Positions 13,380 to 49,887 of a stretch of 64,000 nucleotides of DNA are shown here, one piece after another (the stretch's first letter is position 1; every line of letters begins with the position of its first letter). The stretch is from a virus: positions 1-64,000 of IMG/VR virus record IMGVR_UViG_3300014208_000028; one strand, 5' to 3'. Position numbers and translations under genes: made by a program. A model generated the notes under the pieces. The model ran no database searches. It saw only the letters and a program-made list of their open reading frames with translations, and had not been told where the DNA came from.

Positions 13380-15009
13380 TTAATTATAGTTATGGTCAAA
13401 AGGTTCTTTTTTAGAGTACATAGATTTGCCGGGAATGTCTACGACATGCATATCTAATCTAGGATTCTTCATCTGCGCGGCCAAATAAGCTAAGGTAATA
13501 GAAAATAGACAATCATCAGTATTATCTGGATCATGTATATATTTAAGTCTATCTGTTTTACTTTCTTCTATACACTCATTTAATATATCTTGACCAAATG
13601 GAGTTATAAACTTTTCGGGGTCTGATTTATAAGGAGCTATCATTTCTTGATTTTTAAATAAAGTAAATACATCACTCAATACTCTACTTCTATGTACTAC
13701 CATCATACCGCCGCCATGCTTATCAAAACTTATTTTATCCTTTTGGGCTGCGCTAAAATAAACTGGAATTACTCTTTCTTTTCCAATTCTTTTCTGTAAA
13801 TTAAAATTATAACTTACTCCAAAACCCCAGTCAGCACACACTACTCTACAATTCCATAAATGGCATAACTCAGTTATATCTTGTAAAAAGAAATCTTCAC
13901 TAGCTTCTAAACCAGCATATCTTTTCATATAAGATAATTTATAAGTACCATCTCTTTCTAATGTAAGTATGGTAACTACTGTATAACTTACATTTCCAGT
14001 ACCGTAGTCTATACCCATAACATGTATTTTACTATCTTTTAAACTAGGCGGATTAGGACTACGTTCGAACTCATAATCTCTACAACAAGCTATTAATTCA
14101 GCTTTAGTTATAGGCTTAACTCCTGAGTCCCAAGATTCTCCTAATACTTCATTCATAAAACCCGGCAAATCATAATCATGATATTTATCATGAATACTCT
14201 GCCAATTTTTATGAGTATAAGGAGTCATTAACTGATTAATATGATACCCAGCATATAGATATTTTGAACTTCCAGCAACCCATGTACCCAAGCGTATATC
14301 AAGGCCCTTTCCACATTTTTCACAAACATATCCTTCCACTCCTATATTTTTCATAGTTGTAGCATTCCATTTACCGCAACCGCATTTCGTCATCCACTCA
14401 CACATGGACGATTTTTTTGACCAATAATTTTCTATGGTATTTTCCATAGATAATGGAGTTCCGGCAAATATAATTATTTTATTAGTAGGAAAAGTAGCAG
14501 CACATTCTAGAATAGCAGGTACATGATCCATACCGACATTCTGAATCTCATCTATAGCTATTAATCTCGCCGCCAAACCTCGAACACGCGATTTAGCAGG
14601 ATCTACGAAAGAAGAACGTAATCGAATACTGGAATTATTTACCAGTCGTTTTTCCATTACGTTATTAGTAGTTTTACTATTAGTTAATTTTTTTAATATA
14701 GGACTTTGATCTATTATTGAATAGAGGCGTTCATTGCTAAAGACGCTCATCTGATCGTGCGTGGGGGCCACATATAAAGCTTTAAAATTAGGTAGTAGAG
14801 CACAATAAGTTAGTATCTTATTACCTTGAGTTGTGCTCTTACTACACTGTCTAGAACATTTAAGTAACATATATGTGGAATCATCATCATATATATCTTT
14901 AAAGGAACCTCCAACTATCAAATCCATACTCTCCTACGAAAGGATTCCCTTCTACATAAACAGCTCTTTCTACAAACTCTGAAGGAAGTATATTTAATAC
15001 GTCAGACAT
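13380..15009 (-). CDS. terL: Terminase large subunit (GpA-like), predicted to need a +1 frameshift at 14904-14899 (36 aa + 506 aa = 542 aa)
   Basis: Walker A SRQCSKST, Walker B IAIDEIQ, motif III AGTP, Zn-finger, FMNEVLGE, nuclease MGIDYG and PDNTDD. The upstream 36-codon ORF 15009-14899 supplies a plausible N-terminus. Confidence 0.9.
14899..14912 (-). promoter_or_regulatory. prfB-type +1 ribosomal frameshift cassette
   Basis: GGAGG-TTC-CTT-TAA: internal SD, 3-nt spacer, CUU-U slip site, in-frame stop. Confidence 0.7.
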
Positions 15010-15688
15010 TTTTACGTCTCCAAATATATCCCCCAGCAGTTTTTCTTTTTCCTTTACATGCAGAAGAAATATGTATATCTTTTCCTAATACTGTTTTCGC
15101 TATTCTCGCACTTTCATATTCTCTAATAAAGATACCTTCCTTAGTATATTGTAATACAGGTCTACTACAGGATTTCGCTCTTTTTTGAACTATTTCAGGT
15201 CTTTGTTTTATACCTTTATGGGCTTTACTATTCGCTATTTTTTGCTCTTCAGAATGTTTCCTTCCTCTAATAGCACTAGCAGATCTTTCTACAGCTTCCG
15301 CAGAATGTTTACAACCTCTTCCAGGCTCTTGTACTAAAGGAGAACTATTAAACAAACGCCCACCCTTAAAATATAAATCTAAATACCACTGTTCCCTATT
15401 ACTAAGATTTTCAATATCTACAAACTCAACAATATAAAAAGTTAATTTATCTTCCCCATATTTATCTGAAAATCTTTGAAGTTTAGGGGTAGCCTTACCA
15501 TACTTTAAACAATGACGATGGCCGTAATAACGACCTCTAAATTGTTGTGCTTGACCAATATAAAAACGATCATCTAAGGAATTCACAATAAAGTAAATTC
15601 CAGAACATTTACAATCTTCACGAGGAATGTCAAACTTCATACGTTCCTGAGTATTATTCTCTATCTGTGTATTTAATATCTCAGACAT
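15002..15688 (-). CDS. GIY-YIG homing endonuclease (NUMOD3/NUMOD1-like tail)
   Basis: SGIYFI...FYIGQA...R...H; REQWYLD; GRKHSEE; ACKGKRKTAGGYIW. Confidence 0.88.
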   Translation of the reverse strand: MSEILNTQIENNTQERMKFDIPREDCKCSGIYFIVNSLDDRFYIGQAQQFRGRYYGHRHCLKYGKATPKLQRFSDKYGEDKLTFYIVEFVDIENLSNREQWYLDLYFKGGRLFNSSPLVQEPGRGCKHSAEAVERSASAIRGRKHSEEQKIANSKAHKGIKQRPEIVQKRAKSCSRPVLQYTKEGIFIREYESARIAKTVLGKDIHISSACKGKRKTAGGYIWRRKNV

Positions 15689-21406: not shown

Positions 21407-21482
21407 TGGTGGGCCTAGAGGGTTCCGCCCCCTCGACACCGTGATTAAAAGTCACGTACTCTACTAACTGAGCTATAGGCCC
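21407..21482 (-). tRNA. tRNA-Lys(UUU)
   Basis: GGGCCTA/TAGGCCC+A+CCA; CGTGA-CTTTTAA-TCACG; atypical T-loop GGCGGAA. Confidence 0.92.
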
Positions 21483-24415: not shown

Positions 24416-25057
24416 ATGATTAAAACAATTAAATTAATTTGTACTCATTGTGGAATTTCTTTTATTAGAGATTTAAAAGATTATAACTATCAAATAAAAT
24501 GCGGCCAAGTAAATATCTTTTGTAGTCGTAAATGCTCAAGAGATTTTAAGTACAGTAAAGTAACAATTATTTGTGCAAATTGTGGAAAAGAGGTTATAAA
24601 ACCATTTAAAGAACTCAAAAAAACTAAAAGTGGCAGAAGTTTCTGTAATCATTCTTGTTCGGCCACATATAATAATACTCATAAAACTTATGGAATAAGA
24701 AGGTCTAAACTAGAAAAATTCCTCGAAGATAAATTACGTGAAACTTTTCTATCTCTAGAAATATTATGCAATGATAAAACAGTTATTGGAAGCGAATTAG
24801 ATTTCTATTTTCCCACTTTAAAATTAGGAATAGAGATTAATGGAATTCTTCACTATGAACCTATTTATGGAGTTGATACTTTAGATAAAATACATAATAA
24901 TGATAATAGAAAAATACTAGCTTGCGCTGAAAAAGGAATTGAGTTAATCGTTATTCCTACTATAGAAAAACATATGTCTAAAGAATTAAAAGATATGTAT
25001 TGGAAAAAAATAAAGGAGATTATCTCCTCTAAATTATCTAATTCTATATGCGACTGA
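24416..25057 (+). CDS. Free-standing homing-endonuclease-like protein (Zn-finger repeats + PD-(D/E)XK domain)
   Basis: CxxCG..F..FCSxxC repeats; RSKLE...ELDFYFPTLKLGIEING..HY; opposite strand to its neighbours. Confidence 0.75.
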   Translation: MIKTIKLICTHCGISFIRDLKDYNYQIKCGQVNIFCSRKCSRDFKYSKVTIICANCGKEVIKPFKELKKTKSGRSFCNHSCSATYNNTHKTYGIRRSKLEKFLEDKLRETFLSLEILCNDKTVIGSELDFYFPTLKLGIEINGILHYEPIYGVDTLDKIHNNDNRKILACAEKGIELIVIPTIEKHMSKELKDMYWKKIKEIISSKLSNSICD

Positions 25058-25133
25058 GAGGGGTCGAACCTCCATGAGCTTACGCTCGGCTGGTTTTAAG
25101 CCAGCTCCGTCTGTCCGGTTGCGGCACAGTCGC
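25049..25133 (-). tRNA. tRNA-Leu(UAA), CCA not encoded
   Basis: GCGACTG/CAGTCGC+A; GCTGG-CTTAAAA-CCAGC; long variable arm; T-loop TTCGACC. Confidence 0.92.
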
Positions 25134-49156: not shown

Positions 49157-49887
49157 TTTTTTTCTCCTTTATAATCTTTAGCGTACATCCATTTAAACTT
49201 ATATGTTGTTTTATGTTTTCCCCTACAAACTCTTCCTATAGATCCGCTATATCTTTTTTGTTTAAGATTTAAATGTTTAGTCATTTCTTCTTCTGCTGAA
49301 GCAATACTAGGAAAAGTTTTAATATATTCTCCAGTTAGACTAAGTTGTACTACGGGAATGCTTTTAGCTAAAACACTCATAGCATTAACCCACATTGGAG
49401 GCCCTTTTCCCATACGAGATTTACTCATACTTTCACAATGTTTTTTAGAAAACTTCATACCCTTTCTAGATTCACTTAATTTTTTTCTTTGTTCTAGAGA
49501 TATTACTTTCCCTCTATTAGAATTTCCTATTTTTTCTCTATGCTCTTTTGTTAAATGCCCTCCAGCATTAGATATTTCAGTTCTAAAAGTACTATTCAAT
49601 GAGTCTGGAGATCCTTTATATCTATCTAAGTAAATTTGTTCTACTTCTACTAAAATATCTACATCCACAAATTCTCTTATAAAAAAGTTCAAATACTGTT
49701 TACCATATTTATCTGCCCATCGTTGAAGAAGAATACTATCACTTCCTCTGTTTAATTGAGTATTATGACCATTATTTCTTTCTTTAAAATCATGTGTTCT
49801 ACCTAAATAAAATTTATTATCTAAATCATTAGTAATAAAATATATTCCAGACTTATTTTTATCTTCTTTTTCAACCATAAATTTCAT
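49153..49887 (-). CDS. GIY-YIG homing endonuclease (NUMOD3/NUMOD1-like tail)
   Basis: SGIYFI...FYLG; EQIYLD; repeated EHREKI/EQRKKLS units; CRGKHKT..FKW. Confidence 0.88.
   Translation of the reverse strand: MKFMVEKEDKNKSGIYFITNDLDNKFYLGRTHDFKERNNGHNTQLNRGSDSILLQRWADKYGKQYLNFFIREFVDVDILVEVEQIYLDRYKGSPDSLNSTFRTEISNAGGHLTKEHREKIGNSNRGKVISLEQRKKLSESRKGMKFSKKHCESMSKSRMGKGPPMWVNAMSVLAKSIPVVQLSLTGEYIKTFPSIASAEEEMTKHLNLKQKRYSGSIGRVCRGKHKTTYKFKWMYAKDYKGEKN

Follow-up and report, generated by a model that had tools for sequence, protein, structure and literature searches.

A candidate RF2-type +1 frameshift site in the terminase large subunit gene of a groundwater phage

INTRODUCTION

How could a phage produce its DNA-packaging motor when the gene of the terminase large subunit (TerL) meets a stop codon after 36 codons and continues in a different reading frame? 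This question is raised by the terL gene of virus record IMGVR_UViG_3300014208_000028, which represents a phage of ~200 kb from groundwater. The window, which here means the whole stretch of DNA that was analysed, comprises the first 64 kb of this 199,871-bp record, and the record is rated 100% complete. A preliminary description of the locus, made from the letters of the window, proposed that terL is gated by a +1 frameshift of the kind found in the bacterial release factor 2 (RF2) gene prfB. In our analysis, homology identifies the short open reading frame (ORF) as the N-terminus of TerL, and a Shine–Dalgarno (SD)-like GGAGG, a CTTT run and a TAA stop codon are arranged at the break as in prfB. 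Whether full-length TerL of this phage requires a +1 slip at CUU-UAA is a proposition that we believe and doubt in about equal measure.

RESULTS

Two reading frames of terL

The first segment of terL starts with the ATG at 15009-15007 on the minus strand, and this start overlaps the end of a GIY-YIG ORF (TGA at 15004-15002). Its 36 codons translate as MSDVLNILPSEFVERAVYVEGNPFVGEYGFDSWRFL, and the 3′ end reads TGG (14913-14911), AGG (14910-14908), TTC (14907-14905), CTT (14904-14902), TAA (14901-14899) and A (14898). The +1 frame at the junction reads TTT AAA GAT ATA TAT GAT and is open until the stop codon at 13382-13380. Joining frame 0 to the +1 frame across the break gives a 542-aa protein (P0001). 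The features of the locus are as follows.

15018-15021, minus strand: GGAG ribosome-binding site (RBS) of terL, 8 nt upstream of the ATG, a spacing within the range of this genome.
14899-15009, minus strand: frame-0 segment of terL, 36 codons plus TAA, the conserved TerL N-terminus as predicted by homology.
13380-14900, minus strand: +1-frame segment of terL, 506 codons plus stop, with predicted ATPase and nuclease domains.
14925-14927, minus strand: alternative in-frame ATG (MDLIVGGSF...), the annotated start, with a GGAG just 3 nt upstream.
14908-14912, minus strand: internal SD-like GGAGG, followed by U, 3 nt 5′ of CUU; proposed frameshift stimulator.
14905-14907, minus strand: TTC, which from the sequence would be the E-site codon at the moment of the slip.
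14901-14904, minus strand: CTTT, proposed slippery sequence for re-pairing from CUU to UUU (CTT at 14904-14902 plus T at 14901).
14899-14901, minus strand: frame-0 stop codon TAA, followed by A, which from the sequence would occupy the A site.

The GGAGG at 14908-14912 has no start codon within 17 nt downstream, and the next ATG, 17 nt away, is in another frame. Hence, this GGAGG is not the RBS of a start site.

Identity of the two segments

According to its profile matches, the +1-frame segment is predicted to encode a gpA-type large terminase. It matched PF05876 with E = 3e-12 and 47.1 bits (cut-off 25.6) and phrog_675 with E = 2e-61, with residues 7-521 covered. Walker A (SRQCSKSTT), Walker B (IDEIQ) and the acidic residues of the nuclease were invariant in alignment A2. 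The nuclease domain profile PF20454 gave a weak match of 20 bits, below its cut-off of 22.5.

Alignments with continuous homologs then bear on the short ORF. The closest database proteins (P0003-P0008 and P0010), with 43-52% identity to P0001, are all single ORFs and served as its alignment partners. P0001 aligned to continuous homologs through the junction without any gap, with GFDSWRFLKDIYD in the window against GFxxWPFLKxIYD in the consensus of eight relatives, so that the junction residues are WRFLKDIYD in the window and WPFLKxIYD in the homologs. Met1 of the window TerL aligned with the starts of several homologs. Addition of the 36 residues increased the phrog_675 score from 192.5 to 208.7 bits (+16), and coverage of the profile started at position 22 with the 36-aa piece and at position 47 without it. 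Moreover, at least 24 residues N-terminal of the junction were present in 116/119 homologs. The remaining three are truncated gene calls; for one of these, P0009, inspection of the 204,929-bp contig showed a terL that is continuous in one frame.

The point of the frame change can also be located by homology. None of the 119 homologs starts at the MDLIVGG position, and no homolog matches MDLIVGGSF, the translation of the +1 frame ahead of the junction. Homology therefore places the frame change within the final one or two codons of the short ORF. The best-fitting point lies between WRFL and K, and L occupies the former column in 73/119 homologs. In an AlphaFold2 model of homolog P0004 (mean predicted local distance difference test score, pLDDT, 93.7; first 40 residues >90), which resembles the folds of T4 gp17 and of HK97 and Sf6 TerL, one helix spans the junction and directly precedes the strand leading into Walker A.

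Thus, the 36-aa ORF is, as judged by homology, the true N-terminus of TerL. This identification had been suggested in the preliminary description, whose coordinates and letters for the 36-codon ORF, the junction and the +1 continuation were correct. Its comparison with prfB holds for each element (SD, 3-nt spacer, CUU-U and stop, here UAA), and the continuous homologs that it proposed to look for across the junction are those described above. Its doubt about the MDLIVGGSF start agrees with the homologs and with the spacing statistics given below.

No signs of decay were found in terL. The ratio of N-terminal identity to identity of the rest is 1.08 for the window TerL and 1.11 among relatives, so N-terminal conservation is undiminished, and all invariant catalytic columns are kept in the 506 codons.

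Origin of the junction sequence

At the junction, relatives read TGG CCC TTC CTG AAA (L074), TGG CCT TAT CTT AAA (L044), TGG CCA TAC CTA AAA (L004) or TGG CCT TTT TTA GTT (L001). The window reads TGG AGG TTC CTT T AAA, and differs by one inserted T and by Arg (AGG) in place of Pro (CCN). A single T inserted into CTT AAA accounts for both the CTTT run and the TAA stop. Likewise, GGAGG exists solely because the Pro codon of close relatives is Arg AGG here, after the conserved Trp codon; all eight close relatives have Trp-Pro (TGG CCN) where the window has TGG AGG. AGG is a minor codon in this phage, with 5.1 per 1000.

How often such a cassette would appear by accident was estimated by simulating all 451,467 distinct single-base insertions in the 203 long ORFs of the phage. 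A CTTT-stop arose at the site of insertion in 0.28% of them and together with any 4-mer SD at 2-4 nt in 0.014%; a CTTT-stop with GGAGG at 3 nt arose in 0/451,467. Among the 1,282 insertions giving a CTTT-stop, GGAGG at exactly 3 nt was found in 0 and any 4-mer SD at 2-4 nt in 4.8%. A genome scan for GGAGG-N3-CTT-TRA, as proposed in the preliminary description, gave two copies of GGAGG-N3-CTTTRA in the 199,871 bp. One is the terL copy and the other is antisense to a 573-aa gene, and the terL site is the only coding-strand CTT-stop of the genome with long open frames on both sides. A chance origin of the cassette is improbable.

Translation signals around the site

Genes of this phage are widely SD-led, with GGAG 5-8 nt before the starts, and host ribosomes should therefore pair with GGAGG. 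The phage carries ten tRNAs, including Lys(UUU) and Leu(UAA) (21407-21482 and 25049-25133, minus strand), and none of the ten is for CUU. The tRNA-Lys(UUU) reads the AAA codon that would be entered after the slip; this fits general codon-usage adaptation and is not specific evidence. Folding of the mRNA from 14820-14960 revealed no significant stimulatory structure, since the region was no more stable than shuffled sequence (z = -0.07). An AU-rich 10-bp hairpin at 14866-14897 (minus strand), directly after TAA-A, appeared in both the minimum free energy and the centroid folds.

DISCUSSION

A proposed +1 slip at CUU-UAA

From the break in the DNA, the homology across it and the geometry of the cassette, we infer a slip, its rate and a route to functional TerL as follows. 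An ancestral terL would have carried CTT AAA, and one added T would have changed it to CTT T AAA. Ribosomes would start at the ancestral ATG at 15009, possibly coupled to the endonuclease ORF, translate 36 codons and pause once CUU occupies the P site and UAA the A site. The anti-SD of 16S rRNA would pair with the internal GGAGG(U), which lies 3 nt upstream, and the peptidyl-tRNA-Leu would re-pair from CUU to UUU (+1), so that AAA (Lys) would be decoded next. The product would be the 542-aa TerL with ...WRFL-KDIYD..., and ribosomes that terminate would release the 36-aa peptide. The predicted junction peptide of the full-length protein is ...SWRFLKDIYDDDSTYMLLK, also written FLKDIYDDDSTYMLLK. 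Little terminase is needed, and it works catalytically, so a modest rate of shifting against the strong UAA-A stop could suffice. The site may have evolved as a programme, or it may stem from an indel that was tolerated and either fell into a shift-prone context or gained one later; both histories need the same +1 slip.

Could terL simply be broken?

Several results weigh against an obligatory slip, and some of them suit a different history, in which a recent T insertion inactivated terL, the null or near-null allele is not yet purged or is complemented by a co-infecting wild type, and the likeness to prfB is incidental. We regard this history as possible, though on balance we doubt it. The preliminary description proposed to check related phages for a conserved cassette. 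No conservation was seen: the ~75 terL loci retrieved for relatives (identity up to 52%; viral, metagenomic and genomic collections) are all continuous at the junction, a few of them with large insertions, and a degenerate pattern of the broken junction had zero matches in the viral contig collection. Programmed sites are usually proven by conservation, and a programmed status would here rest on a single genome, with a cassette that is not conserved among orthologs. In the protein database there is no relative with an identity between 52% and 100%. Moreover, one T insertion yields CTTT and TAA together, which leaves the SD as the sole independent coincidence; Arg stands at the AGG column in 8/119 homologs, more distant ones, and is tolerated there. 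The site was also picked from a scan of very many windows, where a rare coincidence somewhere is possible. The lack of decay in terL fits a functional gene, and would equally fit a very recent lesion, in which an intact rest of the gene is expected as well. In addition, UAA followed by A is not the weak UGA-C of prfB. TAAA is the commonest gene end in this genome (49/203), and since TAA-A is an ordinary stop context here, termination should compete well with the slip.

A lesion must, however, be reconciled with the essential role of TerL in packaging and with the status of the broken allele: at ~16x, it is the consensus that was assembled in both runs, and the genome is rated 100% complete. 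It must also treat as accidental an SD that takes at least two substitutions from the CCN of relatives and that, as GGAGG at 3 nt, accompanied none of the simulated CTTT-stop insertions (any 4-mer SD at 2-4 nt, 4.8%).

In the searches themselves, a blastn comparison of the terL region with a phage DNA collection gave no match. A scan of viral contigs with the single protein found no relative, and alignment-based scans did find relatives.

Could TerL start at the internal ATG?

A frameshift would not be needed if TerL started at the ATG at 14927 without its first 36 residues, with the 36-aa peptide being dispensable or associating in trans. This ATG is in frame, is preceded by a GGAG and is the annotated start, and the protein would keep Walker A and everything downstream. 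Its spacing of 3 nt between GGAG and ATG is, however, found in just 2/88 GGAG-preceded starts of this genome, and no start codon with a properly spaced RBS would yield a TerL that keeps an intact Walker A motif. No homolog begins at this position, the break would fall inside a confidently predicted helix beside the Walker A strand, and the N-terminal piece shows the undiminished conservation described above. Lambda gpA binds the small subunit through its N-terminal ~48 residues. We therefore think translation from 14927 unlikely as the source of TerL.

Is the extra T real?

If the real genome carried CTT AAA, the split gene would be an artefact of sequencing or assembly, and the extra base does belong to a short stretch of Ts. 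Two metagenome runs from groundwater, which differ in study and in size, each have a ~184 kb contig that is identical to the window over 14400-15400, with word depths of 16.2 and 16.7 and no indel; among the runs listed for the region, none holds RNA. The two contigs (Logan) were built by another pipeline, independently of the deposited record. At such depth, a homopolymer of three bases is not prone to error, and an artefact would leave the SD-creating AGG unexplained. The comparison covered contigs, which can hide minority alleles, and both runs may be the source sample of the record, which again counts against the slip. The two runs are not independent biological replication, yet an assembler or homopolymer error is unlikely, and we consider an artefact highly improbable. 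The insertion error that the preliminary description wished to exclude is thus made unlikely at the level of contigs.

Introns or inteins, transcriptional slippage and an alternative genetic code were rejected, as the 36-aa ORF starts where homologs start and the break is a single base, the runs are merely T3 and A3, and the two parts are in different frames, respectively.

Neighbouring endonuclease and genome context

The gene that overlaps the start of terL belongs to a family of selfish nucleases.

15002-15688, minus strand: free-standing GIY-YIG homing endonuclease gene, 228 aa, PF01541 with 27.6 bits (cut-off 22.6), activity predicted.

The end of this gene lies 101 nt upstream of the shift site, and neither L001 nor L074 nor any other fetched locus has it upstream of terL. 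Four paralogs with 28-33% identity are scattered over the phage, one in the window (49189-49887) and three at genome positions 105895-106860, 173710-174417 and 195449-196225, and hence the phage carries at least five copies of this homing-endonuclease family. The 114-aa ORF upstream of the endonuclease shows no homology to the gene of 163-170 aa that precedes terL in relatives, so the endonuclease insertion has no cleanly defined boundaries.

A related arrangement is known from T4, where gene 60 carries a 50-nt bypass insert that forms a mobile cassette with the adjacent mobA and is thought to protect from cleavage (PMC5009743). In both phages, an essential gene with an insertion that requires recoding, or would require it here, adjoins a free-standing homing endonuclease gene. 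The two cases differ in that T4 uses a 50-nt hop and the window would use a +1 slip over a 1-nt insert, and in their endonuclease families. For the window, adjacency alone is established and protection from cleavage is hypothetical, although the extra T and the AGG might both serve it, given their distance of ~100 nt from the endonuclease gene. By analogy, the site could be an evolved, obligatory RF2-type +1 frameshift in which the indel acts as a ‘savior’ that makes terL immune to the upstream GIY-YIG endonuclease, with the SD supplied by the Pro-to-Arg (AGG) change. We judge this extended scenario decidedly unlikely.

Other selfish elements were met in relatives of this terL. Insertions of ~1 kb or intein/endonuclease domains (PF14528, PF14890 and PF03161) are present in L030, L052, L068, P0061, P0067, P0068, P0074, P0076, P0080 and P0094; selfish elements frequently target this terminase family. 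On a metagenome contig, another related terL (L067:394-2006) shifts from frame 1 to frame 3 near residue 199, unlike the break of the window.

Gene order differs downstream of terL. In L001, three genes directly follow terL (L001:5161-7087), which are a 92-aa gene, an NT5C-like gene and a 336-aa gene. Their window counterparts lie at 4160-5916, ~7.4 kb further from terL, and the extra material includes a tRNA-Arg. A distant terL relative (L075, 30% identity) lies on RXKB01000001.1 (226,528 bp), which is binned as a ‘Candidatus Dependentiae’ metagenome-assembled genome; the scaffold may come from a large phage that was binned wrongly, or it may point to the host.

Gene calls for these terminases can be displaced. 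The database product for the window terL (P0002, 456 aa) begins at Met87 and lacks Walker A, which is a mis-start by the gene caller. The terL of the relative at L001:3590-5158 is mis-started as well, with P0009 called as 385 aa although its ORF is continuous.

Implications

If ribosomes shift at this site, the SD-CUU-stop cassette, which is short and consists of generic bacterial signals, would be a portable module with which a virus can recode an essential gene. The balance of termination and slippage would then set an upper limit to the output of the packaging motor. The further proposal of the preliminary description, that the site acts as a dosage limiter or late switch when the phage depletes release factors, found no support, as a PF00472 search detected no release factor gene in the phage and TAA-A is an ordinary stop context in this genome. 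The neighbouring endonuclease suggests a link between immunity to selfish nucleases and recoding, for which T4 gene 60 is the main known example. In either case, gene callers mis-start this terL, and split terminase calls in metagenomic phages merit a check for this motif.

Comparison with known recoding systems

The nearest known system is prfB itself. A survey of 12,753 genomes describes its motif as an SD-like run approaching AGGGGG with CTTT 3 nt downstream, and its stop as TGA in >99% and TAA in the rest, with C as the next base (PMC12421855). Reporters of RF2 retain the U after the G-run ‘to maintain the SD-like sequence’ (PMC2377451). The prfB site can be written AGGGGG-U-AU-CUU-UGA-C and the window site GGAGG-U-UC-CUU-UAA-A. 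Both have an SD-like purine run followed by U, a 3-nt spacer, CUU for the P site, CUUU and a stop codon, and both place an early in-frame stop (codon 26 in Escherichia coli, codon 37 here) before a body in the +1 frame. In E. coli RF2 reporters, the E-site codon tunes efficiency, with an intermediate class made up of UNN codons that have one A:U and one G:C pair (PMC2377451). The window differs from prfB in its UAA stop, found in <1% of prfB sites, and in the A that follows. It also differs in that a terminase gene has no autoregulatory logic and that relatives do not share the site. Every +1 CUU-stop site in the RECODE set that was analysed for PRFect belongs to prfB (PMC10885494).

Among phages, Listeria phages PSA, A118 and A500 have a CCC_UGA site in tsh (PMC5009743), which likewise involves a +1 slip of a P-site tRNA beside a stop codon in a structural gene. 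These sites use a proline codon without an SD stimulator, and the slip gives an optional C-terminal extension and two products. In the window, in contrast, the shift would be obligatory for any functional product. ‘Savior’ indels, such as the G-run of herpesvirus thymidine kinase, are comparable in that frameshifting offsets an indel in a needed gene and gives enough product (PMC5009743). Frameshifting in the herpesvirus gene depends on a long homopolymer and occurs at a very low rate, whereas the window has a stimulator that looks dedicated.

The preliminary description knew of no such cassette in a terminase. Recoding as such is not quite new to this gene, since candidate translational bypassing has been proposed in the terminase of Streptomyces phage Hau3 (PMC5009743, PMC10732093). 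The two proposals share a recoding event inside a phage terminase gene, and differ in that bypassing in Hau3 is tied to the rare UUA codon of Streptomyces and the window would use an SD-stimulated +1 slip at CUU-stop.

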